Positions 332 to 51,300 of a stretch of 64,000 bases of DNA are shown here, piece after piece (the first letter of the stretch is position 1; each line of letters opens with the position of its first letter). Source of the stretch: Phycisphaerae bacterium (GTDB lineage: Bacteria > Planctomycetota > Phycisphaerae > SM23-33); NCBI GenBank assembly GCA_049975485.1, contig JBNGDC010000001.1, forward strand, positions 144,996 through 208,995. Direction: 5' to 3'. A program made the position numbers and the translations under genes. The notes under the pieces are model-generated. The model had not been told where the DNA came from, did not search any database, and worked only from the letters and a program-made list of their open reading frames with translations.

Positions 332-832
332 TCAGGAGCCGACCTTTCGTCGTGCCTCCGAGAGCGTTACCAGGTGGGTCTGCTCTTCACGTATAAGCTC
401 ATCCACGGTGCCGCGGTCCTTTTCGCCCACCAACGGTCGCATCTCGTTCATCAGCATCAGGGTATCCCGCTCGTATCGGGATGCAAGCTCGACGGCCTCT
501 GCGTCCGAGCCGCAATTCTCGGCCGCCCGCTCTGCGGCGGCCGGGTCCGGGAACGCCCGCCCGGAAGTCAGAGCCGAAAGGTAGGCCATGTACTGACCGG
601 GGTATTCCTCCGGCGTCTTGACTCCGCCGAGGCGCTCGAGCATGTCCTCGAACCGCTTCTGGTGGAATTTTTCCTGCTCGGCGAGGTCCGCGAAGATGCT
701 CCGCAGCCCGCTGTCTTTGGCGCTGTCGGCGAGGCGACTGTAGAAGGCCACGCCGCTGCGCTCGTCCTCCACGCCTATCTTGACCAGCTCCGCGACTTCG
801 AACTGCTCGGGCATATTCGTCTCCTGTGGCAA
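332..832 (-). CDS. rubrerythrin-family ferritin-like protein
   Basis: 166 aa with two E-x-x-H motifs (EQEKFHQ and EEQTHL) typical of rubrerythrin/ferritin-like four-helix diiron domains. It is a paralog of the adjacent partial gene. Confidence 0.55.
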   Translation of the reverse strand: MPQETNMPEQFEVAELVKIGVEDERSGVAFYSRLADSAKDSGLRSIFADLAEQEKFHQKRFEDMLERLGGVKTPEEYPGQYMAYLSALTSGRAFPDPAAAERAAENCGSDAEAVELASRYERDTLMLMNEMRPLVGEKDRGTVDELIREEQTHLVTLSEARRKVGS

Positions 833-1208
833 TGCAGCAGTGTTCGTTCTCGGAGGCCCACGTTTTCGTTCGCTCGGGGTGGGTCCTCTAACTACTGTTC
901 CGGACAGTCCATCCTGATTTCACAGAAGTATAGCAGCCATTTTGGGGGCAGTCCCAGAACGCGCAGATGATTTTTCCCCGGCTCGGGCGGCAGCTCAGGC
1001 GGTCGAGCCAAGGGCACCGAGATAAAAAAATTTCGCGGCGGGGCGAAAAAGCTGTTCGTGCAGATATGGAGGTGGCGATAATCTTTCTAAAGCTGTGGTG
1101 CTCTCATAGATAGCAAGGTTCGGCCCGCAGCGTGCCGAGGGAGGCACGCATCCGACGGGTCGAGGCATACGTCGCGGCCTGCGTGGTCGCGAACAAGGAG
1201 CCACGGCA

Positions 1209-1310
1209 ATGGCCAAGAAGATGGTCAAGAAGGCGGCCAAGCCCGCCGCGAAGTCCGGCAAGGCGAAGTCGAAGCCGGTCGCCAGAAAGGCGAAGAGCGC
1301 GAAGAAGTAA
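1209..1310 (+). CDS. 33-aa Lys/Ala-rich basic protein (histone H1-like / KAAK-repeat micro-protein)
   Basis: ATG at 1209 is preceded by AAGGAG (1195-1200) with an 8-nt spacer. It encodes MAKKMVKKAAKPAAKSGKAKSKPVARKAKSAKK and ends at TAA 1308-1310. A strong intrinsic terminator follows at 1347-1378. The ORF is too short for the ORF track. Confidence 0.55.
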   Translation: MAKKMVKKAAKPAAKSGKAKSKPVARKAKSAKK

Positions 1311-1346
1311 TTGCTTCGCGTCGCCAAGGCAGCAAAACAGCAGTCT

Positions 1347-1378
1347 CGGGTCGGCCACTCAGCCGACCCGTGTTTTTG
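1347..1378 (+). terminator. Rho-independent terminator after the small basic protein gene
   Basis: Stem CGGGTCGGC, loop CACTCA, stem GCCGACCCG, followed by GTGTTTTTG. Confidence 0.6.
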
Positions 1379-1462
1379 CGCTGCGACCGGCAGTTGAAAG
1401 TGCCCGCCGCTTGTGGTCTGCTTAAGCGGACTTGCCCCCACACAGAAGCGGAGGTTTCTTGC

Positions 1463-2812
1463 ATGAGCGGTGAGCAGACTCCCAAGCGGCTGAATGTCAT
1501 CTGGATATTCGGCGACCAGCATCGCGGTCAGGCGCTGGGCTGTGCCGGAGACCCCAACGTTACCACCCCCAATGTTGACCGCATGGCCGCCGAGGGCGTG
1601 CATTTCACCGGCGCCGTCTCGGGCTTTCCGCTGTGCTGCCCGTACCGCGGTTCGCTCATCACCAGTCGATACCCGCACAAGTGCGTTCCGGGTCACGAGT
1701 ATCCGCTGGACGCCGACCTGCCGACAGTTGCGACCGCATTCAAGGATGCGGGCTACCACACGGCCTACTTCGGCAAGTGGCACCTCGGCGGCTGGAAGGA
1801 GCGCGACGGGCGTGCGGCGATGTATATTATCCCGCCCCAGCAGCGGGGCGGCTTCGACGTCTGGGCCGGCTACGACAACAACAACCGTCAATGGGACTCC
1901 TGGGTCCACGGCGGCGTCGGCGAAGAGGCGTTCCACCGGCGGCTCGACGGTTACGAGACCGACGCATTGACCGACATGCTTATCGACTACCTCCGCTCCC
2001 GTAGCGACGGGGGCGAACACAGGGAGCCCTTCTTCGCGTCACTGTCCGTCCAGCCGCCGCACGACCCCTACGTCGCCCCCGAAAGGTGGATGGGCCGTCA
2101 CAGGAGCGGTGACCTGGTTCTGCGGCCGAACGTGCCGAACGTCGAGCGTGTGGTCGCACAGGCCCGCCGCGAGCTGGCGGGTTACTACGCCCAGATTGAG
2201 AACATCGACTGGAACATCGGGCGTATCCGTCAGGCGCTTGAGCAGACGGGGCTGGCCGAGAACACACTGCTGATGTTCTTCTCCGACCACGGCGACCAGC
2301 ACGGCTCGCACGGGCAGTTCCGCAAGATGAGCCCCTACGAAGAGGCGATCCGTATACCCATGATCATAGCGCCGGCCCGGGCGGACTATCGCTTCAAGAC
2401 CGCCGCCACCGACGTGCCGGTCAACCACGTGGACATGGCCCCGACAACGCTGGGGCTTTGCGGTATTGACACACCTGAGTGGATGTCCGGCACGGATTAC
2501 TCCGGGCACTTCATCCGGGGCCGTGAGGCGGCCCGGCCGCCGCGCGAGTCGGCCTATCTGCAGGTGGTCGTGCCGACCGGGCACGGCAACAGCGTGGACA
2601 GGCCATGGCGCGGCGTGGTCACGAGCGACGGCTGGAAATACGCCGTCCTGCCGGGGCAGCCGTTCATGATGTTCAACCTGAACGAGGATCCCTACGAGCA
2701 GGTGAACCTGGCCTACAACACCCGCTTCCGTGCGGAGCGGCGGCGGCTGCAGGAGATGCTGGCCGGGTGGATTGCCGATACCGACGACGAGTTCGAGCTG
2801 CCGGAGGTATAG
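1463..2812 (+). CDS. sulfatase (arylsulfatase family, formylglycine-dependent)
   Basis: CCPYRGSLITSRYPH carries the CxPxR FGly motif, together with GKWHLG and FFSDHGD motifs. ATG 1463 has a GGAGG RBS (1449-1453). The track start at 1370 (GTG) lies inside the upstream terminator hairpin and is rejected. There is no signal peptide. Confidence 0.8.
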   Translation: MSGEQTPKRLNVIWIFGDQHRGQALGCAGDPNVTTPNVDRMAAEGVHFTGAVSGFPLCCPYRGSLITSRYPHKCVPGHEYPLDADLPTVATAFKDAGYHTAYFGKWHLGGWKERDGRAAMYIIPPQQRGGFDVWAGYDNNNRQWDSWVHGGVGEEAFHRRLDGYETDALTDMLIDYLRSRSDGGEHREPFFASLSVQPPHDPYVAPERWMGRHRSGDLVLRPNVPNVERVVAQARRELAGYYAQIENIDWNIGRIRQALEQTGLAENTLLMFFSDHGDQHGSHGQFRKMSPYEEAIRIPMIIAPARADYRFKTAATDVPVNHVDMAPTTLGLCGIDTPEWMSGTDYSGHFIRGREAARPPRESAYLQVVVPTGHGNSVDRPWRGVVTSDGWKYAVLPGQPFMMFNLNEDPYEQVNLAYNTRFRAERRRLQEMLAGWIADTDDEFELPEV

Positions 2813-2818
2813 CGGGCG

Positions 2819-3024
2819 TGACCGCGGGCGACGTGTCAATCTGGGCCTTGTATCTGGGGTTGCTGCTGCTGCCGCTGACGGCCGGCGTGCTGGCGGCGGA
2901 GTCCGTGGCGGGCGGTCGGTCCATGCCGCGTGCGGCGCGGGTCTGGTCGTATATCGGACGGGGGCTGGCGATTGTCGCGGCAGTGTGTTTTGCGGCGGCA
3001 GCTCTGCTGTACCTGCTGGGATAG
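2819..3024 (+). CDS. possible small two-TM membrane protein (hypothetical)
   Basis: A GTG start gives VTAGDVSIWALYLGLLLLPLTAGVLAAE...AIVAAVCFAAAALLYLLG, with two hydrophobic helices. There is no homology call; this could be an artifact. Confidence 0.2.
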
Positions 3025-3076
3025 ACCGCGCCGACAAGCGCGTTGCTACGCCTGTTTCATTACCCGCTCACTGGCG

Positions 3077-3120
3077 TTCGCGGCCAGCCGCGAGCGGCAG
3101 CGAGCGGAAATGCCGGCTTG
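3077..3120. repeat. 34-bp intergenic repeat with nested hairpin, copy 1 (family shared with 26780-26840)
   Basis: TTCGCGGCCAGCCGCGAGCGGCAGCGAGCGGAAA matches 26797-26830 at 31 of 34 positions. The inner palindrome is CGCGGC-CA-GCCGCG and the outer arms are CCGCTC and GAGCGG. It sits between convergent genes. Confidence 0.6.
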
Positions 3121-3232
3121 TTAATTGGTTAGCCAGTCATCCTCGCGAGGCGAGCAAACAAGTTGCTCGCCCTGCGGCCTATCACGATTGTTCGATAACT
3201 TGTCGGGCAAGTATGACCGACCGACGAGCTAT

Positions 3233-3270
3233 CTATTGCCTATTGCCTATTGCCTGCTGCCTACTGCCTA
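3233..3270. repeat. tandem heptanucleotide repeat (CTATTGC/CTRCTGC) x5.5, equal to (AGGCARY)n on the thuA sense strand
   Basis: CTATTGC CTATTGC CTATTGC CTGCTGC CTACTGC CTAC. It abuts the thuA stop codon. It is the reverse complement of the 20021-20097 array. Confidence 0.7.
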
Positions 3271-3996
3271 CTCTTCGAACCAGCCCATGGGTTTGTTGGG
3301 CGCGCCCAGCGGCATGGTGCCGGTCGGTGCTATCCAGCGGACGGCGTTGGTAATCACACGCAGCACCTCCGGCTGCTTGTAGATGGGGAAGGTCTCGTGC
3401 CCGGGCCGGAAGTAGAACACCTTGCCCGCGCCTCGCGTCCACACACAGCCGCTGCGGAATACCTCTCCGCCGGCGAAGCTGGAGATGAATATCTGTTCGT
3501 CCGGCTGGGGGATGTCGAAGTGCTCACCGTACATCTCGGTGTGCTCGATGATTATGCACTCGCCGATGCCCTCGACGATCGGATGCCCCGGCCGCGTGAC
3601 CCACAGCACCTCGCGCTCGCCGACCTCGCGCCACTTGAGCTGACAGGTGGTGCCCATCAAGCGCTTGAACGGCTTGGAGAAGTGCCCGCTGTGCAGCACT
3701 ATCAGCCCCATGCCCTGAAGCACCCGCTTCTGCACGCGGTCCACGATTTCGTCGGACACTTCCCCGTGTGCCATGTGGGCCCACCAAAGCAGCACGTCGG
3801 TGTCGTCGAGCTTGTCGTCCGTAAGGCCGTGCTCCGGTTCGTCGAGCGTAGCGGTGCCGGCCGTGATGCCTTCCTGCGCATTCAGATGCTCGGCGAGGCA
3901 GGCGTGGATGCCGTCGGGGTAAACCTTCCTTACGGCCTCGTCCTTCTTCTCGTGGCGAAATTCATTCCAGACTGTGACGCGAATGTCCTTACCCAT
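3268..3996 (-). CDS. ThuA-like (trehalose utilisation / class-I glutamine amidotransferase-like) protein
   Basis: 242 aa. The N-terminus [27 protein letters not shown] and overall length fit the ThuA family. Confidence 0.55.
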
Positions 3997-4342: not shown

Positions 4343-6892
4343 ATGGAGAGACCCTTGAACCGAAACGGCCTTTTTACCCGGTATGCCTGCATAGTAGCCG
4401 TTGTGCTCGTGACCGTATCGGTGTCCTGGACGCAGAACGCGTCACCCGTTGAGGTCGAAGACGGCTTTGCCCAACGTTTCGAGGCCGGCAAGCTCTGGCG
4501 CGACGGCGTCGATATGGCGATGGAGGGGGACTTCTCCGCCGCCTTGCAGAAGGTGCGCAGGGCGGCCGAGATAGACCCCGACGACGAGTACATCGCCGCC
4601 GGCGTGGAGTGCCTGGATGAGTATGTATCCCGGCGGGAGCGGTTCGAGACCGAGCGACGGCTGGAATACTCCGATGCCGTCCGTCGCGTTCGCAGGGGCA
4701 TGCTTGCCCAGGAGTATCTGCCCAAGCTTGCCGCCGCCGAGCTGCATGAGCCCCTGCGCAAGAAGGTCGAGCAGGCCATCATCGAGCAGTACAACTCCGT
4801 CAACAGCGCTTCATCGCTTGATGAGCTTTCCGAGCAGGAGGCGCTGGATCTCAGGTCCGAAGTCATCGCCGTAACGGAGAAGATGTCGGCCGGTGTGGAC
4901 CAGGCCGTCGCCATGCTCGACGGCGACGACAGTGAATACGCCCGTCAGTTCGCCGAGGCCGCCGAAGAAGTCTCCTACTACATTCGGGTGTACCGCAACG
5001 GCTGGCGGGGCGTGCGGCTTGAATCCGCCGACGACCGCGCAAAGGCCGCCGATGTCCTGGCGGAGGTGGAGGACAAACTGGCAGACGCTATCTCCGAGCT
5101 GGAGATGATGGTGGATAAAAAGCCCTGGCGGCGGGCGCTGTCGCAGGGAATCCTGGCGAGAGAGCTGCACCGCAAGGACAACGGCCCGCTTGACGGGAAG
5201 GATTGGTACAACGAGTTGATAGCCCTTGCGGAGGAGCACGCCGAGCAGGCCGTCGCCGACGCCGAGTGGTACGACGCAGCCGCCGCGTACAGCGGCCTGG
5301 AGGAGTTGACCGGCGGCAACGGTCTCTACGAGCAGCAGATGGATCAGGGCCGCAGGCACGTTAGGGTGCTGGGGCTGTATGGCGAGGGCAACCCCGAGAG
5401 CGATACCCAGCCGGTGGATAACACCTGGCAGGAACTGGTAGCCGGCGCCGACGCGAACATGGTTCGCGAGGCCATCCAGCGCCTGGACCAGTATTACGTT
5501 GAGGCGGTGGACTATCGGGACCTGGCGAACGGCGCGCTGCTGGCGATGGAGGTGCTCGCGGATACGCCGCAAGCGGCCGAGAGCTTCGAGACGCTCAACG
5601 ATGAGGAGAAACGTCAGCAGTTCCTCAGCGCCATAAGGAGCATGCGGGAGAACATCGCCGACAAGCAGCAGGTAGGCACGCTGGACCTGCTGTTCATGCT
5701 GAATCACGTGCTGAGGGAATCCGACCGCAGCGTAAAGCTTCCGGCCGAGGTCATCGCCGTGGAGTTCGCCGACGGGATGCTCAACGAACTGGACAAGTTC
5801 AGCTCGATGATCTGGCCGCACGACCTGGCCGACTTCGAAAAGCACACGCGCGGGCATTTCTACGGCGTCGGCATCCAGATTACCAAGGAGATCGGCGAGC
5901 CGCTGGAAGTGGTGACCCCGCTGGCGGGCACGCCGGCGTATCGGGCCGGCATCAAGCCGGGCGACGTCATCATCGCCGTGGACGGCCGCCGCACCGAGGA
6001 CCTGGGCATAGACAAGCTCGTGAGAATGATCATGGGCGAGGAGGGCACGCGAGTGACGCTGAGAATAGAGCGTCCCGGGCGTGTCAAGCCGTTCGACGTG
6101 ACACTCACGCGCGACAAGATCACCATCCGGACGGTCAAGGGCTGGCAGCGTGTGAACGACGAGGGCTGGCAGTACCTGGTGGGCCAGACCGACGGTGTCG
6201 GCTACGTGCGGTGCAGCCAGTTCAGCGAGCAGACGGTAGAGGAGCTTACCGAGGCGCTGGAGCAGGTCAACGGCGACGAAGTGGACGCCCTGGTGCTTGA
6301 CTTGCGGTGGAACCCCGGCGGGCTGCTCAGCTCGGCCGTCGAGGTCGCCGACGAGTTCCTCAATGACCACCGCAGGATAGTCTCCACCAAAGGTCGCCAG
6401 GCGCGCTACGAGGAGCGGTCGGCCAGCCCAAGGGGCGAGTATCTCGACAAACCGCTGGTGGTGCTGGTGAACGACGCCAGTGCATCGGCCGCCGAGATCG
6501 TCGCCGGCGCCCTGCAGGACTGGGACCGGGCCATCGTGGTCGGCGAGCGGACCTACGGAAAGGGCAGCGTCCAGCACGTAATCCGCATACGTCCCGAACG
6601 GTCCATGCTGAAGCTGACCACCGCCTACTACTACCTGCCGCATGGCCGGCTGCTGCACAGGGTCAACGGCAAGGACGAGTGGGGCGTGGCCCCGGATATC
6701 GAGGTCCTGATGACTCCCGAGCAGACCCGCCGCTGGCTGGAGCTGCGACGGGAGACCGACCTTATTCAGGATATCGAGCCGGAAGAACTGAACCGCGAGC
6801 TGTCCAGGCAGTACGAGGCCGACCTGCAGCTACAGACCGCCGTCGTGCTGCTGAAGCTGATGCGACTGGACGAGCAACGCTCCGCGGCTTAG
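4343..6892 (+). CDS. S41 family C-terminal processing peptidase with PDZ domain and a long N-terminal extension
   Basis: The C-terminal half has a PDZ (GIKPGDVIIAVDG) and an S41 core (LDLRWNPGGLL, VVLVNDASASAAEIVAGALQD, GERTYGKGSVQ). There is an N-terminal signal/TM segment, and about 450 aa of Ala/Glu-rich helical sequence precede the protease. Confidence 0.8.
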   Translation: MERPLNRNGLFTRYACIVAVVLVTVSVSWTQNASPVEVEDGFAQRFEAGKLWRDGVDMAMEGDFSAALQKVRRAAEIDPDDEYIAAGVECLDEYVSRRERFETERRLEYSDAVRRVRRGMLAQEYLPKLAAAELHEPLRKKVEQAIIEQYNSVNSASSLDELSEQEALDLRSEVIAVTEKMSAGVDQAVAMLDGDDSEYARQFAEAAEEVSYYIRVYRNGWRGVRLESADDRAKAADVLAEVEDKLADAISELEMMVDKKPWRRALSQGILARELHRKDNGPLDGKDWYNELIALAEEHAEQAVADAEWYDAAAAYSGLEELTGGNGLYEQQMDQGRRHVRVLGLYGEGNPESDTQPVDNTWQELVAGADANMVREAIQRLDQYYVEAVDYRDLANGALLAMEVLADTPQAAESFETLNDEEKRQQFLSAIRSMRENIADKQQVGTLDLLFMLNHVLRESDRSVKLPAEVIAVEFADGMLNELDKFSSMIWPHDLADFEKHTRGHFYGVGIQITKEIGEPLEVVTPLAGTPAYRAGIKPGDVIIAVDGRRTEDLGIDKLVRMIMGEEGTRVTLRIERPGRVKPFDVTLTRDKITIRTVKGWQRVNDEGWQYLVGQTDGVGYVRCSQFSEQTVEELTEALEQVNGDEVDALVLDLRWNPGGLLSSAVEVADEFLNDHRRIVSTKGRQARYEERSASPRGEYLDKPLVVLVNDASASAAEIVAGALQDWDRAIVVGERTYGKGSVQHVIRIRPERSMLKLTTAYYYLPHGRLLHRVNGKDEWGVAPDIEVLMTPEQTRRWLELRRETDLIQDIEPEELNRELSRQYEADLQLQTAVVLLKLMRLDEQRSAA

Positions 6893-21754: not shown

Positions 21755-22513
21755 GTGGCTCGTAAGCTGTTTATTGCCGGAAACTGGAAGATGAACCTCA
21801 ACCGCGCCGAGGCCGGTGAACTGGCCGGCGCGCTTAAGAGCAAAATCGGCGATGTTGACGCGGTGGACCTGGCCGTCTGCCCGCCGATGGTGCACCTGGA
21901 GACGGTGGGCAAGGCCGTCGCGGGCAGCAAAATCGCACTCGGCGCGCAGAACATGTTCTATGAGGACAACGGGGCGTTCACCGGGGAGACATCGTCGGCG
22001 ATGCTTCTCGATGCCGGTTGCCGGTATGTGATACTCGGCCACAGCGAGCGGCGGCACGTAATCGGGGAGTCCGACGAGCTTATCAATCGCAAGGTCCTCA
22101 AGGCGCTGAGTGACGGACTCGAGCCGATTCTGTGCGTGGGCGAGCTGCTGGAGCAGCGCGAGGCGAACGAGACCATGGAAGTCGTCCGCCGCCAGGTCGA
22201 GGTCGGCCTGGAAGGTGTCTCGTCCGCCGACGCCAAGCGTGTTACCATCGCGTACGAGCCGGTCTGGGCCATCGGCACCGGCAAGACCGCCACGCCGGAC
22301 CAGGCGCAGGAAGTGCACGCGATGATTCGCAAGCTGCTGAGCGAGCGTTTCGACGGGCCTGTGGCCGATACAATCAGGATACAGTACGGCGGGTCGGTGA
22401 AGCCGTCCAACGCGGGCGAGCTTCTGGGACAGCCCGATATCGACGGCGCCCTGGTGGGCGGGGCGAGTCTCAAGGCCGACGACTTTGCGGGAATCGTGGA
22501 AGCCGGTCAATGA
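21755..22513 (+). CDS. tpiA: triosephosphate isomerase
   Basis: GTG start with an AAAGGAG RBS. GNWKMN, GHSERR and AYEPVWAIGTG motifs. Confidence 0.95.
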   Translation: MARKLFIAGNWKMNLNRAEAGELAGALKSKIGDVDAVDLAVCPPMVHLETVGKAVAGSKIALGAQNMFYEDNGAFTGETSSAMLLDAGCRYVILGHSERRHVIGESDELINRKVLKALSDGLEPILCVGELLEQREANETMEVVRRQVEVGLEGVSSADAKRVTIAYEPVWAIGTGKTATPDQAQEVHAMIRKLLSERFDGPVADTIRIQYGGSVKPSNAGELLGQPDIDGALVGGASLKADDFAGIVEAGQ

Positions 22514-22559
22514 GTCGCGCCGCCCAGAAAGCAGCGCGGTATTAACGGAGAGCTGGCAG

Positions 22560-23210
22560 ATGGACATCTTTCTCGGAGTTCTGTTCCTTATAGTCTGCAT
22601 ATTGCTGATCGCGGTAATCCTGCTTCAGCGGGGCCGTGGCGGTGGTCTTGGCTCCGCTTTCGGGGGCGGCGCGGGCAGCAGCGCCTTCGGTACGCGGACC
22701 GGCGATGTGTTCACGTGGGTCACGATCGTGCTGACGGCCGCTTTTCTGCTGCTGGCCGTCGGGACGGTTATCGCCCACAAGCAGGAGCCGGACCAGGTGG
22801 CGACGCCCGAGTTCAGCCCCGCGCCGGGTCCCATAGATGAGCCGGTTAACGTCACCATAAGCTCGGAAACGCGGGGAGCGGAAATCTGGTACACGGTTGA
22901 CGGCGGCGAGCCGAAGCAAAATGAGTCCATGCCGTATGAGAAGAACCCCGTTCCGATCGAGCCGGGCATGACTCTCAGGGCGAAGGCCTACCGCCCCGGC
23001 TGGCAGGACAGCGAGGTGGCCGTGGGCGCCTACCTGGAACCGGTGCCGCCTGAGACGCCCGAAACAGAGGAGCCGGAAGCGCCGGCTGTTGACGCCGAAG
23101 ATGATGAGCAGTCGCAGACGGCGCCGGCGGGGGAGTCGGAGACCAAAAACACCGAGGAACCGACCACCCGGCCGGTAGAGGAAGCAACTACTCAACCGGT
23201 TGGGAGTTAG
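22560..23210 (+). CDS. secG: preprotein translocase subunit SecG with a roughly 140-aa C-terminal extension
   Basis: The conserved tpiA-secG pair is present. Two TM helices and a Gly-rich loop (LLQRGRGGGLGSAFGGGAGSSAFGTRTGD). The extension contains EIWYTVDGGEP...TLRAKAYRPGWQDSEV, resembling the chitobiase/hexosaminidase C-terminal (CHB_HEX_C) motif, and then an acidic Pro/Glu/Thr tail. Confidence 0.75.
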   Translation: MDIFLGVLFLIVCILLIAVILLQRGRGGGLGSAFGGGAGSSAFGTRTGDVFTWVTIVLTAAFLLLAVGTVIAHKQEPDQVATPEFSPAPGPIDEPVNVTISSETRGAEIWYTVDGGEPKQNESMPYEKNPVPIEPGMTLRAKAYRPGWQDSEVAVGAYLEPVPPETPETEEPEAPAVDAEDDEQSQTAPAGESETKNTEEPTTRPVEEATTQPVGS

Positions 23211-23220
23211 GGAATCTACA

Positions 23221-24105
23221 ATGGCGGTTCATTCCATGACGGGCTACGGCAGCGCCGCGGGCGTTGTGGACCGGATCGAGTATTCGGTGGAGGTCCGCAG
23301 CGTCAATAATCGCTACTTCAAGCCCAGCATACGTCTGCCGGACGTCTGGTCGCGGGCCGAGCCGGAGATAGAAAAGCTGCTGCGGTCGCAGATACGTCGC
23401 GGAACGGTGTCTGTCTCAGTGCAGATGAAGGTGCACGACGCCGAGGCCGCCTGGGACGTTAACGTGCCGGCCCTGAACCGCTACATCGAGCAGCTCCGTC
23501 CGCTGGAGGTGGAGGCGAACCCCATGCTGCATGTGGATATCGCCTCTATGATGCAGCTTCCCGGCGTGTGCGAGCCGCCCGACAGCGAGAAGATAATCGA
23601 GGCCTCGCGTGACAAGCTTTTTGCGCTTATCAACGAGGCCCTGGATGCGCTGGTGCGTATGCGTGCCCGCGAGGGTGAGTCCATCGAGCAGGACCTGAGG
23701 GAGAACTGCGACCTGATAGAGCAGCAGTTGGCCACGGTGCAGAAGCGCTCGCCGGTCGTGGTGGAGGAATACCGCCGGCGACTGACGGAAAGAATACGGG
23801 AGCTGACTGAGAACTCCGACCCGTCGCTCGCCGAGCAGACCCTCTCGCGCGAGGTGGCGGTCTTCGCCGACCGATGCGACATAGCCGAGGAGGTCTCGCG
23901 CCTCAGCGCCCACGTGGAGCAGTTCCGCAAGGCGCTTGGCGAGCGGGAGCCGTCCGGGCGTAAACTGGAGTTCATCGCCCAGGAGATGCTCCGCGAGGCC
24001 AACACCATCGCCTCGAAATCGGGCGATATGGAGATCTCGCGGGCGGTCGTGGAGATAAAGACCGGCGTGGACCGGATCAAGGAACAGGTTCAGAACGTTC
24101 AGTGA
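23221..24105 (+). CDS. yicC: YicC-family stress-induced protein
   Basis: N-terminal MAVHSMTGYG and a C-terminal DUF1732-like region. The yicC-gmk-rpoZ arrangement is conserved. Confidence 0.8.
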   Translation: MAVHSMTGYGSAAGVVDRIEYSVEVRSVNNRYFKPSIRLPDVWSRAEPEIEKLLRSQIRRGTVSVSVQMKVHDAEAAWDVNVPALNRYIEQLRPLEVEANPMLHVDIASMMQLPGVCEPPDSEKIIEASRDKLFALINEALDALVRMRAREGESIEQDLRENCDLIEQQLATVQKRSPVVVEEYRRRLTERIRELTENSDPSLAEQTLSREVAVFADRCDIAEEVSRLSAHVEQFRKALGEREPSGRKLEFIAQEMLREANTIASKSGDMEISRAVVEIKTGVDRIKEQVQNVQ

Positions 24106-24124
24106 GTATCGGCGGGCCGGCGGC

Positions 24125-24706
24125 GTGAGCGAAGACAGCGGGCATCTTGTGGTGATCAGCGGACCCAGCGGGGTCGGCAAGAGCACCATCGCCCACGAGG
24201 TGGTTCAGCGGACGGGCGCCGAATTCAGCGTCTCGGCGACGACGCGTTCGCCCCGACCTCACGAGCGGGACGGGCGGGATTACCACTTTGTGGACCGCGA
24301 GAAGTTTGAGAAGATGATCGCCGACGGCGAGTTGCTGGAATGGGCGGAGGTTTTCGGCGAGCTTTACGGCACGCCCGCCGGGCCGGTCCGCGAGGCGCTG
24401 CGGCAGGGACGCAATATACTGCTGGACGTGGACGTGCAGGGAGGCCGACAGGTGCACGAGTCCATGCCCGGCGCGACGTTCGTGCTTATCCTGCCGCCCA
24501 GCGACGAGGAGCTGGCCAGGCGTCTGCGGGGCAGGGGCAGTGAATCCGAGGAGCAGATCCGTCGGCGGCTGTCGAAGGCCCGCGAGGAAATCGCCGCCGC
24601 CGAGGCGCAGGGCATATATAATCACCGCGTGGTGAACGATCGCCTCGAAGACGCGATCGAGGCCGTTATGCGTATAGTCAATCAACCGGAGACTTCGAAA
24701 CAATGA
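24125..24706 (+). CDS. gmk: guanylate kinase
   Basis: GTG start. P-loop GPSGVGKST. The SATTR and EVFGELYGT regions are typical of Gmk. Confidence 0.9.
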   Translation: MSEDSGHLVVISGPSGVGKSTIAHEVVQRTGAEFSVSATTRSPRPHERDGRDYHFVDREKFEKMIADGELLEWAEVFGELYGTPAGPVREALRQGRNILLDVDVQGGRQVHESMPGATFVLILPPSDEELARRLRGRGSESEEQIRRRLSKAREEIAAAEAQGIYNHRVVNDRLEDAIEAVMRIVNQPETSKQ

Positions 24707-24933
24707 TCGAGGCCCTCAAGAGCGAAGAAATCGTCGAGAAGGTCGGTGGCCGCTTCAAGCTTACCGCACTGATGCAGAAGCGACTGGTGGAGCTTATGCA
24801 GGGCGCCCGCCCGCTGGTGGAGCGCAAGCGCGGCATGACCGACATGGAGGTCGTCGTCCAGGAGATTCTCGAGGACAAGATCGCCATCGACTACGACAAG
24901 TCCGATATCGACAGCCCCGAGGAATCGGACTGA
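24703..24933 (+). CDS. rpoZ: DNA-directed RNA polymerase subunit omega
   Basis: 76 aa with a GGRFKLTALMQKRLVEL core. It has a 4-nt ATGA overlap with gmk. Confidence 0.8.
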   Translation: MIEALKSEEIVEKVGGRFKLTALMQKRLVELMQGARPLVERKRGMTDMEVVVQEILEDKIAIDYDKSDIDSPEESD

Positions 24934-24959
24934 CCGCACAGCTTCAGCGGGAGTCGCAC

Positions 24960-25532
24960 ATGACCGGACAGCCCGACACGCCGTCGCCGCAGCACGAGGT
25001 GCTGCTGTGCGTTACGGGGGGTATTGCGTGCTACAAGTCGGCGGACCTGGCGAGCAAGCTGGTGGCCGACGGCTTTGGCGTGACGGTGGCGATGAGTGAG
25101 GCGGCCGAGAGGTTTGTCGCGCCGCTTACGTTCCAGACGCTCACGCGGCGACGGGTTTACACCTCGCTGTGGCAGTCCACGGAGCAGTATGAATCCACGC
25201 ATATCTCAACGTCGGACCTTGCGGAGCTGATGATAGTCGCGCCGGCGACGGCGGACACTATCGCCAAGCTGGCGACAGGCCTGGCCGACGATATTGTCTC
25301 CACGCTGCTGCTGGCCCGCCCGGCCGATTGCCCGCTGCTGCTGGCGCCGGCCATGAACACGCGCATGTGGCAGGCGCCGCCGACCCAGGCCAACATCGAA
25401 AAGCTCAAGGGCTGGGGCGTGCATACGGTAGGCCCGGCCGAGGGGCGGCTTGCATGCGGCGACACGGGACCCGGCAGAATGGCCGAGCCGGCGGACATAC
25501 TCGCCGCAGCCAAAAAGCTTCTGAGCGGGTAG
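24960..25532 (+). CDS. coaC: phosphopantothenoylcysteine decarboxylase (flavoprotein, CoaC half of CoaBC)
   Basis: LLCVTGGIACYK, MIVAPATADTIAKLATGLADD and PAMNTRMW motifs. It is encoded separately from coaB. Confidence 0.85.
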   Translation: MTGQPDTPSPQHEVLLCVTGGIACYKSADLASKLVADGFGVTVAMSEAAERFVAPLTFQTLTRRRVYTSLWQSTEQYESTHISTSDLAELMIVAPATADTIAKLATGLADDIVSTLLLARPADCPLLLAPAMNTRMWQAPPTQANIEKLKGWGVHTVGPAEGRLACGDTGPGRMAEPADILAAAKKLLSG

Positions 25533-25563
25533 AATGTCGTCGCCGTGATCGGGAACCAGGGGA

Positions 25564-25761
25564 ATGAAGGTCCGAGAAGTGATAAAATGGCTTCAGGATG
25601 ATGGATGGGTGCAGGTCGTGCAGCGAGGAAGCCATCGCCAGTTCAAGCATCCTGTGAAGCCCGGGAGAGTAACGGTTGCCGGTAATCCCTCCCACGACCT
25701 TGCCCCTGGAACACTGAACAGCATCGTGAAGCAGGCCGGACTTAAGGGTCGCAAGCCATGA
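25564..25761 (+). CDS. hicA: HicA-family mRNA interferase toxin
   Basis: 65 aa: MKVREVIKWLQDDGWVQVVQRGSHRQFKHP...GTLNSIVKQAGL, matching the YcfA/HicA fold signature. It overlaps hicB by 4 nt. Confidence 0.8.
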   Translation: MKVREVIKWLQDDGWVQVVQRGSHRQFKHPVKPGRVTVAGNPSHDLAPGTLNSIVKQAGLKGRKP

Positions 25762-25976
25762 ACTACCTCGTGGTCATCGAGAAGGCGGACGGGAATTACT
25801 CGGCCTATGTACCCGACCTGCCCGGATGCGTCGCCACAGGGGAGACGCTGGAGGAGGTCCGTTCGGCCGTCCGCGACGCGGTGGAGATGCACCTTGCCGG
25901 GCTTCGCGAGGATGGTCAGGAAATTCCGCCGGCACGGGCCATGGGCGAAGTGATCGAAGCCGGCTCCGGTCAATAA
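25758..25976 (+). CDS. hicB: HicB-family antitoxin (UPF0150)
   Basis: 72 aa: YLVVIEKADGNYSAYVPDLPGCVATGETLEEVRSAVRDAVEMHL. Confidence 0.8.
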   Translation: MNYLVVIEKADGNYSAYVPDLPGCVATGETLEEVRSAVRDAVEMHLAGLREDGQEIPPARAMGEVIEAGSGQ

Positions 25977-26130
25977 ACCGAGGGTTGGAAAATTCGGCCG
26001 ATTGTGCACTTTTCCAACGCGCCGGGGCTCCATCGCCAAGGTATGGGTAGCTCGGACCAGTCGGAACTGTGCGACGTCACCCGTACGGCACGGCCTTTAC
26101 CGCCACAGCGGCAATCGGTAAGCTCCGACC

Positions 26131-26763
26131 ATGCGGATACTCGTAACAGCCGGTCCCACGCGCGAGCCGATCGACTCGGTTCGGTTCATCACCAACGCCT
26201 CCAGCGGACGCATGGGCTGCGCGGTGGCGTCGGCCGCTGTCGAAGCGGGTCACGACGTGACGCTTCTGCTCGGTCCGTGCCCGGCCGAGCCGCCCGCCGG
26301 CTGCGAGGTGCTACGCTTTATGACGGCCGCGGAACTGAAGCGACTGCTTGAAGAGCACTTCCCCGCCTGCGACGCGCTGGTGATGGCGGCGGCCGTTGGA
26401 GACTTCACGCCCGAAAGACCGGCCGTTGGCAAGCTGCGGCGTTCGTCGGGACCGGTGGAGCTTCGACTGCTGCCTACCGACGACCTGCTCGCCGGCGTTG
26501 CCGCAGGCAAACGACCGGGTCAGAGAATCGTCGCCTTTGCCGTGGAAGCCGGCGACGAGGACGCGATGTCCGCCGCGGCCAGGCGCAAGCTCACCGCCAA
26601 GGGGGCCGATTTCATCGTGGTCAACTCTCCGGAGGCAATGAGCGCCGAGACCAGCCGTGCAGCCATCCTCACCGCCGACGATGTCCTGCTGCCCTGGGGC
26701 GAGCGGACCAAAACGGAGCTGGCGGCGGAGATAGTCAAACTACCGGCGACGGGCGGGAATTGA
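26131..26763 (+). CDS. coaB: phosphopantothenate--cysteine ligase (CoaB half of CoaBC)
   Basis: ILVTAGPTREPIDSVRFITNASSGRMG, AAAVGDF, KADFIV-type motifs. It sits 600 bp downstream of coaC, with hicAB in between. Confidence 0.8.
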   Translation: MRILVTAGPTREPIDSVRFITNASSGRMGCAVASAAVEAGHDVTLLLGPCPAEPPAGCEVLRFMTAAELKRLLEEHFPACDALVMAAAVGDFTPERPAVGKLRRSSGPVELRLLPTDDLLAGVAAGKRPGQRIVAFAVEAGDEDAMSAAARRKLTAKGADFIVVNSPEAMSAETSRAAILTADDVLLPWGERTKTELAAEIVKLPATGGN

Positions 26764-26779
26764 CTCTATGCGCACAAAC

Positions 26780-26840
26780 TTTCCGCTCCCTTCCAGTCGC
26801 GGCTAGCCGCGAGCGACAGCGAGCGGAAACGAGCAAGATT
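26780..26840. repeat. 34-bp intergenic repeat with nested hairpin, copy 2
   Basis: Outer perfect 9-bp inverted repeat TTTCCGCTC ... GAGCGGAAA, with an inner CGCGGC-TA-GCCGCG palindrome. The core 26797-26830 matches 3077-3110 at 31 of 34 positions. It lies directly after the coaB stop and the convergent thyA-like stop. Confidence 0.6.
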
Positions 26841-26844
26841 CGGC

Positions 26845-27675
26845 TTACTGACCCACAAGCTCTTCGCGGCGCTGTCTCAGCAGGGGCTTTTTATCCTCGG
26901 GCATGTCCGGCTCGGCCAGGAGCTTGTCCAGCCCTTCGACGAAGAAGTCCCTGGCGAAATCGGTGCTGAAGACGCGCTGGTCCTCGGGCCTGGTTTCGAT
27001 GGTCTTGAGAAAACCCTCGAAGTCCTGAAAGTAGCTGCCGTAGATGTGAAAGCTGTCGGCGATGTGTATGTACTCGCCCGGCTCTACGCCCACCTGGCGG
27101 GCGATATCCTCCTGAAGCTCGGTGAAGGCGTACATGTTCATGAAGGCGGCCTTGAAGGCGTCGTTGCTGCGCATGTGCGCGTTCATGTGCAGCCGCCCGT
27201 CGGAAATGCGGAACCACAGCCGCTGGAGGCACGCGGGGTCGTTGATGTTCAGGTCGTTCCACACCTGCCAGGTAACCGCCTGGGCGCGGCGGGTGTGTCC
27301 GACGCTCTTGAGTTTCTCAACGACGGCCGCGAGCTGGTCGATACGCTCGCCGTCCGGCAGGGCGTAGCTGCGCAGGCGCTCGTGGTAGGTGTATTCCCAC
27401 TTGCCGGCGGCGGGGTCTATCCAGTGGTCGTGCACGCCGTAGAGGACTTCGGCGCGGTATTTTTCCAGGTCGTCCAGTCCGCCGGGGAACGCCCGGTGTA
27501 CGCGCGGCTCCCGGAAGGGGTGGGTCACATGAACCACGGCCGTCACGTCCCGACTGTTCGGGTCATCCGGACGGTCGTACTCGGTGGGGAAGCTCTCGCC
27601 CTCGCGCCAGCAGGCGACGACGGCCCGCTCCCAGCCGACGGGGAGCGTCTCGGCGACGACGTGTATCGACTTCAT
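26845..27675 (-). CDS. thymidylate synthase (ThyA) superfamily protein, divergent
   Basis: The C-terminal 170 aa align to the ThyA core: the catalytic Cys is in NDPACLQRLWF (PCH becomes ACL), and HMRSNDAF, FMNMYAFTEL and IHIADSFHIY correspond to YQRSCDVF, FNIASYALL and HTLGDAHLY. The N-terminal 110 aa are unlike canonical ThyA. The start is set at 27675 (GGAGG RBS). Confidence 0.6.
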   Translation of the reverse strand: MKSIHVVAETLPVGWERAVVACWREGESFPTEYDRPDDPNSRDVTAVVHVTHPFREPRVHRAFPGGLDDLEKYRAEVLYGVHDHWIDPAAGKWEYTYHERLRSYALPDGERIDQLAAVVEKLKSVGHTRRAQAVTWQVWNDLNINDPACLQRLWFRISDGRLHMNAHMRSNDAFKAAFMNMYAFTELQEDIARQVGVEPGEYIHIADSFHIYGSYFQDFEGFLKTIETRPEDQRVFSTDFARDFFVEGLDKLLAEPDMPEDKKPLLRQRREELVGQ

Positions 27676-27749
27676 CCTGCCTCCATGCTCGGCGGCACAG
27701 ACCGCAGACATCCTTGTACGCGCGGCGACGGCGTCGGTCAAGCCGTCGT

Positions 27750-48378: not shown

Positions 48379-51300
48379 ATGCGATCCGCCAAGGACCTTT
48401 TGGAAATATGGAACGCGCCGCCGGCGGAGTTCCGCAGCGCGCCGTTCTGGTCGTGGAACGACGAGCTGGACCCTCTGCGCCTTTGCCGTCAGATAGACAG
48501 CATGCACGCCGCCGGGATGGGCGGCTTTTTCATGCACAGCCGCTACGGGTTGAAGACGCCGTACCTCTCCGACGACTGGTTCGCATGCGTGACGGTTTGC
48601 ATAGAACGGGCCGCCGAATTGGGCATGAAAGCATATCTCTACGACGAGGACCGTTGGCCTTCCGGACCGGCCGGCGGAATCGTTACCCGCGACAACCCGG
48701 AGTACGCCAAGCACGTGCTTACCGCCGGTCCGCCCGCGGAGGAAGGCGAAGCTGTCGTCCGCCAGGGCGTCTTCGCGGTAAATCTGGACGAGCAGGGGCG
48801 GCTTGTTGACTATCAGCCGGTCGAAGACCCGGCCGGGGACACCTCCGAAAAGCAGGTGCTTGCCTTTGACGTGTTCGTCGCCGGTCCCGCCGGGCAGCAT
48901 AACGACGCAGCGTATCTGGACACGATGAACGGCGAGGCCGTCGAGGAATTCATCCACGTTACCCACCAGGCGTACGCGGACCGGTACTCCAAGCACTTCG
49001 GCGGCGTAATCCCGGCGATATTCACCGACGAGCCGAACTATGGCGGATGGGGTTCCAGTCGCTCCAGGCCGCACCTGCAGTGGACGCCCAACCTGCCGCG
49101 CGAGTTTCGCCGCCGTCGCGGGTACGATCTGCGCGACCACCTGCCGGAACTGGTCTATCCCACAGCCGCCGGGTTTTCGAAGGTGCGCTACGACTACCGC
49201 CGGACGCTGACGGAGCTGTTCGTGGAGAGCTTCACCCGGCAGATCGGGATATGGTGCGGCAAGCATAATATCTCGCTGACCGGGCACATGCTGGAAGAGC
49301 CGACGCTCAGCTCTCAGGTCAAGGTCGTGGGCGCATGCATGCCTCACTACGAGCACATGCAGTGGCCCGGTATCGACATGCTCACCGACCAGGCGGACGA
49401 GCTGACCACGGCCAAGCAGTGTTCCTCCGTGGCGGACCAGCTCGGCCGGGACCGTGTGCTCAGCGAGCTGTATGGCTGCACGGGCTGGGATTGGCCGCTG
49501 GAGGGGCACAAGTTCGTCGGCGACTGGCAGTTCGCCTGCGGCGTGAACTTCCGCTGCCCCCACCTTACGCACTATTCGCTCGCCGGCGGCGCCAAGCGCG
49601 ACTACCCCGCGAGCATCTTCGCCCACAGTCCGTGGTGGGACTACTACAACGTGGTGGAGGACTATTTCGCACGGCTGGGCTTCATGCTCACCCGCGGCAA
49701 GCCCATACGCGACGTGCTGGTCGTCCATCCGGTCGAAAGCGCCTGGGGTCTGATGGCGCCTGGGGAGGACGGCACGGCGGGGGTCCGGCCCCTGGAGGAG
49801 TCGCTGGAGCGGCTCATACGCACGCTGTCGGGCCGGCACTGGGACTGGGATTTCGGCGACGAGTCGCTGTTGGAGAAGTACTCGAAGGTCTCCGGCGATA
49901 CCCTTTCAGTCGGCGAGATGAGCTACAAGCTGGTCGTGGTTCCGCCGTGCGAGACGCTGCGGTCCTCCACGGTGGAACTGCTGAAGCGTTTCGCCGCCCA
50001 GGGCGGGGCGGTGATGTTCATCGGTGAGGCGCCGCGTCGCGTGGACGCGGTTGAGAGCCGCGATGCACTGGAACTGGCGGCGGACGTTGACGGCTGCCAG
50101 GACGATACCGAGCAGATATCGCTTACCCTGGGTAAGCTGTTGGACCGCCGTGTGTCGCTGCGAGAGGGGGAGAACGAGGCCGAGTTTGTCTGGTCGATGC
50201 TGCGGGATATCAAAGGTGGTCGGGTGCTGTTCTGCCAGTCGCACGACCGCAAGCAAGGGCATCGTCTGACGGCGGAGGTCGAGGGTGCCCAGCCGGTGCT
50301 GTTGTGGGACCCGCGGACCGGCCGCATAAGCCAGGTGGAATCGGAGCAGTCGGGCAATCGGGTGCGGTTCGAGCTGGATCTTCCGCCGACCGGGTCGGCC
50401 CTGGTGACGTTGGGTGTCTCGCACCGCGACGCCGAGGAAGCGGTGCCCGAGCCGACAATCGCGGACAGCCGGAGTCTGTCGGGGCCTTTCCCCGTGGAGC
50501 TGGTCGAGCCGAACACGATGCCGCTGGACTACTGCCGCTTCCGCACGGGTGACGGGCAGTGGTCGCAGCCGGTACCAACACTCAAGGCCGACACCATGAT
50601 CCGTGAGCACTTCGGGTTGGGCGAACGCGGCAACAAGGGGCCGCAGCCGTGGTATTTGTATCGCACCGGGGTGTTGGATACCGCACCTCGGGGACGCTGC
50701 GAGATGGCATGGGATTTTCACGTAACCACGCTGCCGCCGCGGTGCATGCTGGCGCTGGAACGGCCGGGCGACTTTAAGGTCAGCGTCAACGGCAAGGCGG
50801 CCGGCGGGGCGAAGGGTTTCTGGGTGGATGAGGACATCCGCACCATCGACATCACCGCTCTGCTGGTCGAGGGCGACAACGAGGTGCGCCTGACGTTCGA
50901 CTATCGGCCCGACATGGAGCTGGAGGACATGTACCTGGTCGGCGAGTTCGGCGTCCGCCCGCTGGCTGGAGAAACGTTTGAGCCGGGCAACCTTACGCTT
51001 GTCGAGCAGCCCACAGAGCTGTCAACCGGCTCCTGGTTGAGTCAGGGCCTGCCGTTCTATGGCGGCGCCGTCAGGTACCGCATTGGCGTCGAGAAGCCGG
51101 CCAGTGGCCGCGTCCGGCTCCGTCTGGACAAACCGGCCGCTACGGCAGTGGCCGTACACGCCGGCGGGCGGACGTGGGCTTTGCCCTGGCCGCCGTTTGT
51201 GGTGGACATTACCGACGGTCTGTCGGAAGGGGAAAACGAGGTGGTAGTGGAGGCAATCGCCGGCCGCAAGAACATACTCGGTCCGCTGCATACGCCGTGG

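Follow-up and report, generated by a model that had tools for sequence, protein, structure and literature searches.

A horizontally acquired Class 1 hicAB cassette probably occupies a pre-existing coaC-coaB spacer in a Phycisphaerae bacterium

In most prokaryotes, CoaB and CoaC are fused into a single CoaBC protein (PMC7794376). In the 64 000-nt stretch of Phycisphaerae DNA analysed here (the window), the two activities are encoded by separate genes and a hicA-hicB toxin-antitoxin (TA) pair lies between them. Did the cassette break a coaBC gene, or did it enter a spacer that was already there, and how could it be expressed in that place? The earlier note on this DNA had offered insertion into a fused coaBC and TA capture within an essential operon as alternatives. 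We consider it likely that a compact Class 1 hicAB was acquired horizontally into a pre-existing coaC-coaB spacer, that no gene was split, and that hicAB was captured there probably three times.

All the genes of the cluster are on the + strand. The first gene of this conserved, co-directional cluster is a yicC-like endoribonuclease gene (23200-24105; matches to PF03755 and PF08340), which occupies the same cluster position in loci L001, L002, L004 and L136. It is followed by gmk, encoding guanylate kinase (24125-24706; PF00625, E = 7.5e-49), and by rpoZ, encoding RNA polymerase omega (24703-24933; PF01192, E = 1.9e-7), which overlaps gmk by 4 nt. The next gene is coaC; it encodes a stand-alone phosphopantothenoylcysteine decarboxylase of 190 aa (24960-25532; PF02441, E = 7.6e-29). 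coaB encodes a stand-alone phosphopantothenate-cysteine ligase of 210 aa (26131-26763; PF04127, E = 8.6e-51). The domain matches are complete for both the CoaC flavoprotein and the CoaB ligase. PAMNTRMW and ACGDTGPGRM were taken to be CoaC motifs, and GPTREPID...SSGRMG a CoaB motif. An in-frame stop is present 9 nt upstream of the coaB ATG, and this start codon is residue 1 in alignments with nearly all relatives. The order described in the earlier note, with the hicA-hicB pair between separate coaC and coaB, was confirmed by profile for all four ORFs, and the non-coding gap of about 150 nt that it had seen before coaB measured 154 nt (25977-26130). Downstream of coaB, the window carries convergent thymidylate-synthase-like and MTHFR genes.

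CoaC and CoaB were compared by profile search with TIGR00521, the NCBIfam CoaBC equivalog of 392 positions (cut-off 219.7 bits). CoaC matched positions 4-178 (205.6 bits) and CoaB positions 188-389 (145.2 bits). Since the first match ends at 178 and the second begins at 188, the break between the genes falls exactly at the inter-domain linker. The two domains are on separate ORFs 598 nt apart, which places them outside the bifunctional CoaBC/Dfp family.

The age of the split was assessed in 84 loci around CoaC relatives (species-representative genomes, protein look-ups) and 50 loci around CoaB relatives (metagenomes). The best 120 CoaC homologues (63-100% identity) were all 189-214 aa long and had PF02441 as their sole domain. 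coaC and coaB were separate in all of the approximately 57 Planctomycetota loci surveyed; in every Planctomycetota-type locus examined they were separate ORFs or coaB was located elsewhere, and in many genomes coaB was away from coaC altogether. The groups concerned were Phycisphaerae, Sedimentisphaerales, Anaerohalosphaeraceae, Planctomycetia, Planctomycetaceae, Gimesia, Thermoguttaceae and Pirellulales. Fused coaBC was found in the surveyed Alphaproteobacteria, Gammaproteobacteria, Deltaproteobacteria, Clostridia and others. In the closest relatives (CoaC 83-86% identical), the yicC-gmk-rpoZ-coaC-coaB synteny was kept, minus hicAB. Locus L085 (CoaC 86% and CoaB 89% identical to those of the window) has split genes, a 135-nt spacer and no hicAB. 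Loci L005 (CoaC 84%) and L001 (83%) are split with a 9-nt spacer and no hicAB, and beyond coaB they have the convergent thymidylate-synthase-like and MTHFR genes that the window also carries. Because the split is Planctomycetota-wide and is present in the nearest relatives without hicAB, it long predates the cassette. Separate coaC and coaB genes thus seem to characterize the phylum Planctomycetota as a whole.

Insertion of a TA cassette into a fused coaBC, creating the coaC/coaB split, is refuted by this distribution: it would account for a break at the TIGR00521 domain boundary (178/188) with the cassette exactly there, and fused CoaBC is usual in most prokaryotes (PMC7794376), but not one of the Planctomycetota loci examined has a fused gene, the closest relatives have the split without hicAB, and by composition the cassette is younger than the genes around it. 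The earlier note, which had put this insertion forward, had also proposed the comparison with relatives and named an ancestral split as speaking against it, and this is essentially what was found. Its other proposal, TA capture within an essential operon, stood: both proteins passed the TA profile searches, and the pair is co-directional inside the conserved yicC-gmk-rpoZ-coaC-coaB cluster.

Separate CoaB and CoaC polypeptides are also found in streptococci and enterococci (TIGR02113, coaC_strep; TIGR02114, coaB_strep). The window CoaC matched TIGR02113 over its full length (E = 3.5e-53), whereas CoaB matched TIGR02114 over its first ~95 residues only. Neither protein reached the cut-off of its streptococcal model, and both scored better on the halves of TIGR00521. 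On account of these scores, the planctomycetotal split seems to be a fission of a CoaBC-type gene that occurred independently. The split matters for annotation, as such proteins are labelled bifunctional CoaBC in the sources, and its phylum-wide extent bears on thinking about CoaBC-targeted inhibitors.

The cassette was then characterized. hicA (25564-25761, + strand) encodes a toxin of 65 aa with the residues Gly22-Ser23-His24. It matched PF07927 over positions 2-58 of 58 (78.3 bits for a cut-off of 27; E = 4.8e-22). hicB (25758-25976, + strand) encodes a short antitoxin of 72 aa, which matched PF15919 over positions 1-65 of 123 (E = 7.1e-14) and, as a second profile, PF21748 (E = 8.8e-9). 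The 4-nt overlap of the two genes noticed earlier is the ATGA at 25758-25761. HicA aligned with Burkholderia pseudomallei HicA (4C26/6G26) over residues 4-60 (E = 6e-11), and His24 is opposite the H24A position of 4C26 (RGSHRQFKHP in the window, TGSAHHFKHP in 4C26). From the published mutant, we take this residue to be the catalytic His of B. pseudomallei HicA. Of the 142 residues of B. pseudomallei HicB (6G1C/6G1N), only residues 2-58 aligned with the window HicB, which also aligned to the stand-alone protein TTHA0281. No C-terminal HTH or RHH DNA-binding domain was found in the window HicB, nor any match to the C-terminal portion of the B. pseudomallei protein. As judged from these alignments, HicB is a partial RNase-H-like neutralizing domain predicted to bind HicA. 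The family is large (>7900 homologues), and its best 120 members are 68-74 aa long.

These features are those of Class 1 modules, in which hicA precedes hicB, HicA has 60-85 aa, HicB has 60-90 aa without a DNA-binding domain, and the genes are closely linked and often overlap (Gerdes, mBio 2024, PMC10865869). On all of these points of sequence and gene order, the window pair is a Class 1 hicAB. Its structure is the same as in the published class; what is specific to the window is the setting in the yicC-gmk-rpoZ-coaC-coaB cluster, and the overlap of the genes suggests translational coupling. The catalytic His and the N-terminal domain of HicB (aligned over residues 2-57) are shared with the classical HicAB systems (B. 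pseudomallei 4C26/6G26/6G1N, Escherichia coli K-12 and Streptococcus pneumoniae). In those systems, however, the C-terminal RHH or HTH domain of HicB auto-represses the operon, whereas the window HicB ends right after the neutralizing domain. By domain content, the pair is outside the classical autoregulated Classes 3/4 of Gerdes.

A pair with these characters could be a decaying or inert remnant, or a domesticated regulator of CoA biosynthesis, instead of a working TA pair. It has no DNA-binding domain and no recognizable promoter of its own, its location within a CoA operon invites the regulatory idea, and no Class 1 module had been tested by experiment (PMC10865869). Yet the two ORFs are intact and of full length by their profiles, and the Gly22/His24 motif is kept. 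Between the loci that carry the cassette, hicA has a dN of 0.17-0.24 with a dS >1.4; at such saturated dS, this dN indicates purifying selection on HicA. HicB proteins of ~70 aa make up a very large family of uniform size (PMC10865869), and CoA is made without the cassette in most relatives. A remnant or a domesticated regulator is very improbable on these grounds, and a working Class 1 TA pair is the reading retained below.

The origin of the cassette was examined through its relatives and its composition. HicA has its closest non-self relatives (80-84% identity) in Desulfotomaculales, Obscuribacterales and Actinobacteria and on metagenomic contigs of anonymous origin; wherever flanking genes were available, the context was unrelated (YjbR, HIT, AdoHcyase, dcw cluster). 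In the window, GC3 is 0.59 for hicA and 0.75 for hicB, against 0.78-0.86 in five neighbouring genes. In all three loci where the cassette was found between coaC and coaB (the window, L007 and L136), the GC3 of hicA/hicB is 4-5 SD below that of the flanking genes. The cassette is thus foreign-looking in its host.

Traces of the insertion event itself were sought as well. Target-site duplications, proposed earlier as a check, and terminal inverted repeats were searched around 25533-26130, and only short matches at chance level were obtained. No recombinase was found between gmk and the thymidylate-synthase-like gene, and no insertion scar or mobilizing enzyme at the cassette, the junctions of which differ among carriers. 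A 15-nt similarity (25497-25511 and 26137-26151) was rejected as a scar: it is inside the coaC and coaB coding sequences and 80% identical. A weak HicA-like tblastn match at 50315-50488 was discarded as spurious, being inside a 1027-aa ORF on the opposite strand.

Beyond what the earlier note had covered, the capture recurs in two other loci and the spacer hosts other mobile modules. L007 (CAYRVX010000060.1) and L136 (JBDKTA010000034.1) both have the order coaC-hicA-hicB-coaB, with orientation and synteny as in the window. Both come from Phycisphaerae-like genomes. L007 is 71% identical to the window in CoaC, 71% in HicA and 64% in HicB. L136 is 75% identical in HicA and 66% in HicB, and the gaps that flank its cassette are 15 and 10 nt. 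The metagenome scan with CoaB (50 loci) gave no additional hicAB carrier.

Three carriers could descend from one ancient hicAB insertion in an ancestor of this Phycisphaerae clade, inherited vertically thereafter, with repeated loss from most descendants. The same spacer, orientation and Class 1 subfamily are found in the window, L007 and L136, and a TA pair is easily lost from a spacer. Identities between the cassettes (67-75% for HicA, 62-67% for HicB) are similar in size to those of the hosts (57-71% for CoaC, 63% for CoaB). In a concatenated HicA + HicB tree with few comparators, the three cassettes group at 55% bootstrap, and the best match of the L007 HicB is the L136 HicB; as the proteins have only 65-72 aa, phylogenetic resolution of the cassette origin is weak. 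Against a single insertion, a neighbour-joining tree of Gmk + RpoZ + CoaC scatters the three carriers, each with nearer hicAB-free relatives, so that at least six independent losses would be needed on the host tree. The three-way identities are at or below the family background, random pairs of database matches having means of 76.5% (HicA) and 73.6% (HicB), and closer HicA relatives exist in unrelated organisms and contexts (83% for the window, 84% for L136). GC3 is still far from that of the host in the carriers (hicA/hicB 0.56/0.54 against 0.77-0.90 for host genes in L136, 0.73/0.74 against 0.88-0.93 in L007), though host synonymous sites are near saturation (dS of about 1.0-1.2 between the window and L136). 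Finally, the junction sequences are not homologous. A single ancient insertion therefore seems unlikely. The scattered carriers, the background-level identities, the closer relatives elsewhere and the foreign GC3 lead us to favour independent captures of hicAB at one site, a preference held with some reserve.

Independent capture raises the question of what makes the site acceptable. The coaC-hicA spacer (25533-25563, 31 nt, + strand) contains no terminator-like site and no TTTACy-type promoter; a lone -10 element is possible at 25530-25535 (TAGAAT). Most of the hicB-coaB gap (25977-26095, + strand) could not be aligned to relatives and includes a 9-bp hairpin (25985-25993/26009-26017) without a U-tail; in the 154-nt spacer, the search for RNA structure gave a fold z-score of -0.94 and no meaningful Rfam family. 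An alignment of the spacer sequences from the window, L001, L004, L007 and L085 matched only in the last ~45 nt before coaB and did not define the insertion end-points.

The aligned part contains a promoter-like element, recognized by comparison, in which TTTACC-N17-TAAGCT-N6 (26096-26130, + strand) is followed directly by the ATG of coaB. The full pattern TTTACC-N17-TAAGCT-N6-ATG (26096-26133) occurs once in the 64 kb, for 0.01-0.02 occurrences expected. At least 14 related loci, among them L085, L004 and the carrier L007, have its relaxed form, TTTACy-N17-TAnnnT-N6-ATG, upstream of coaB, and the sequence separating the boxes has diverged from locus to locus. Conservation of the boxes while the intervening bases differ is the reason for reading the element as a promoter, and it suggests that coaB has a promoter of its own. 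The fixed 6-nt distance to the ATG and the lack of a Shine-Dalgarno sequence imply that the mRNA of coaB would be leaderless. A sigma-70 consensus scan of the operon called no promoter, the coaB element being below the scanner thresholds. A candidate element for leaderless coaB expression is of interest in itself, as Phycisphaerae promoters are poorly characterized. The arrangement has exceptions. In L136 the hicB-coaB gap is 10 nt and the conserved promoter spacing is absent, so independence of coaB is not universal among carriers. In L001, L005, L092 and L100, coaC and coaB are 8-9 nt apart and there is no -35 box.

No terminator-like site was found on the + strand from yicC to the coaB stop. 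The only one in 23100-27000 is a terminator-like hairpin downstream of coaB (26874-26887, + strand), a weak match to the consensus. With neither a + strand terminator nor a TTTACy-type promoter before hicA, read-through is the simplest source of hicAB transcription. The transcripts of the cassette thus most likely arise by read-through from the yicC-gmk-rpoZ-coaC unit, and translation of hicA and hicB is most likely coupled via the ATGA overlap. HicA would act as a ribosome-independent mRNA-cleaving toxin, as its catalytic His24 indicates, and would be neutralized through binding by the partial RNase-H-fold HicB. Because HicB is devoid of a DNA-binding domain, hicAB is unable to auto-repress. 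A supply by read-through fits a HicB that cannot bind DNA. coaB would escape polarity by keeping its own conserved promoter, with a transcription start at or next to the ATG. Insertions upstream of the promoter element would be non-polar since coaB would be transcriptionally autonomous, and this independence may have turned the coaC-coaB interval into a permissive landing site.

Other cargo is found in the same spacer. L075 carries a Phd/YefM antitoxin and ParE toxin pair on the opposite strand, and L088 a DNA methylase, an MTaX1/HNH protein and an M14 peptidase. A metallophosphoesterase is present in L009 and L010, a heparinase-like gene in L094, a conserved membrane protein of ~100 aa in L035, L038 and L045, and several genes in L015. 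A selfish or defence-type module was present in about 5 of the ~57 loci with adjacent coaC and coaB. We propose that hicAB (probably three times), phd/parE and the methylase/HNH module are found in this spacer because the independence of coaB makes the site permissive.

The setting was compared with that of other Class 1 cassettes. In the dcw cluster of L139/L140 (hicAB twice, with mazE/PIN), compact Class 1 hicAB is likewise co-directional between essential genes with very short gaps, in another operon and another organism. This shows that capture into housekeeping operons is general for this cassette type and not specific to CoA. Class 1 hicAB was co-directional with the upstream gene in ~6 of 6 contexts, which are too few to set against the bacterial co-orientation bias.

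Taken as a single locus, the window is of little weight: it contains a standard compact TA pair, and the apparent gene split is ancestral. Its broader interest is in expression, the regulation of Class 1 modules being an open question (PMC10865869). TA cassettes without a DNA-binding domain, found repeatedly and co-directionally in essential operons, give a concrete hypothesis for how Class 1 modules are expressed. Tentatively, selfish modules that have neither promoter nor regulator may have a genuine recurrent landing site in the coaC-coaB spacer of Planctomycetota, and Class 1 hicAB may generally hitch-hike on read-through from housekeeping operons; this goes further than we would hold as probable. 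If true, it would provide a testable answer to how a hicAB module without a DNA-binding domain is regulated.

The coaC-coaB spacer, occupied by hicAB in the window, holds other cargo in several relatives. In an Anaerohalosphaeraceae MAG (locus L075), a Phd/YefM antitoxin gene and a ParE toxin gene were found in this spacer at 5108-5689 (-), that is, in the same spacer as the window hicAB and on the opposite strand. Both products were matched by profiles (PF02604, 6e-13, and PF05016, 1e-11, respectively). The spacer of the Phycisphaerae locus L088 measures 3.7 kb and is filled by genes (358-3917) for a DNA methylase (PF01555), an MTaX1/HNH-endonuclease protein and a peptidase of the M14 family; this content resembles a mobile, restriction-modification-like module placed where the window carries hicAB. 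Three Planctomycetaceae MAGs (L035, 4562-4897; L038, 4590-4898; L045, 3903-4199) encode a conserved predicted membrane protein of about 100 aa in this spacer; a Pfam search with this protein returned no match. In the Phycisphaerae locus L004, the spacer (4574-4953) is 380 nt long and contains two copies of a repeat of about 31 nt, GCGCTTGTCACGCACACGCGCGGGTGCCGTG. An IS200-type Y1 transposase gene lies 3' of coaB at this locus (6042-6503).

By sequence comparison, the element TTTACy-N17-TAnnnT-N6-ATG was located 5' of coaB in the window (26096-26133) and in L085 (942-986), a near relative without hicAB. It was also present 5' of coaB in the Phycisphaerae loci L004, L007, L012, L086-L088, L091, L094-L097, L102 and L133. 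Among these loci, the bases between the boxes differ and the layout is kept. The element resembles a sigma-70-type promoter, and its spacing to the ATG predicts a leaderless coaB mRNA.

Upstream of the cluster, a SecG homologue of 185-241 aa is encoded 5' of yicC in the window (22485-23210, +), in the relatives' loci L001 (308-991) and L002 (1621-2253), and in L136 (971-1534), another hicAB carrier. It is unusually long, with a C-terminal extension conserved within the clade; in the relatives, precomputed matches to CHB_HEX_C_1 and Fn3_assoc were found besides SecG. Downstream, a thymidylate-synthase-like gene (26845-27741, -) is convergent with coaB. Its PF00303 match (E=7.6e-20) is partial, covering residues 104-246 only, and the product is possibly a divergent enzyme, either ThyA-like or deoxynucleotide-modifying. 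The gene adjoins MTHFR in L001 and L005 too.

Outside Planctomycetota, two Gammaproteobacteria MAGs (L056 and L071) and a Bryobacterales MAG (L065) were scored as having split coaC/coaB, with gaps of 17-23 nt or odd ones. These apparent splits could be frameshifts or assembly errors and not real fissions.

Compact hicAB pairs were also found in the dcw cluster of another organism (L139, 2795-5463; L140, 106-2774), where the murC-murB interval holds two of them in tandem and the murB-ddl interval holds a MazE/PIN pair. All share the orientation of the neighbouring genes, the gaps being very short, and are TA cassettes threaded into the essential dcw cluster.
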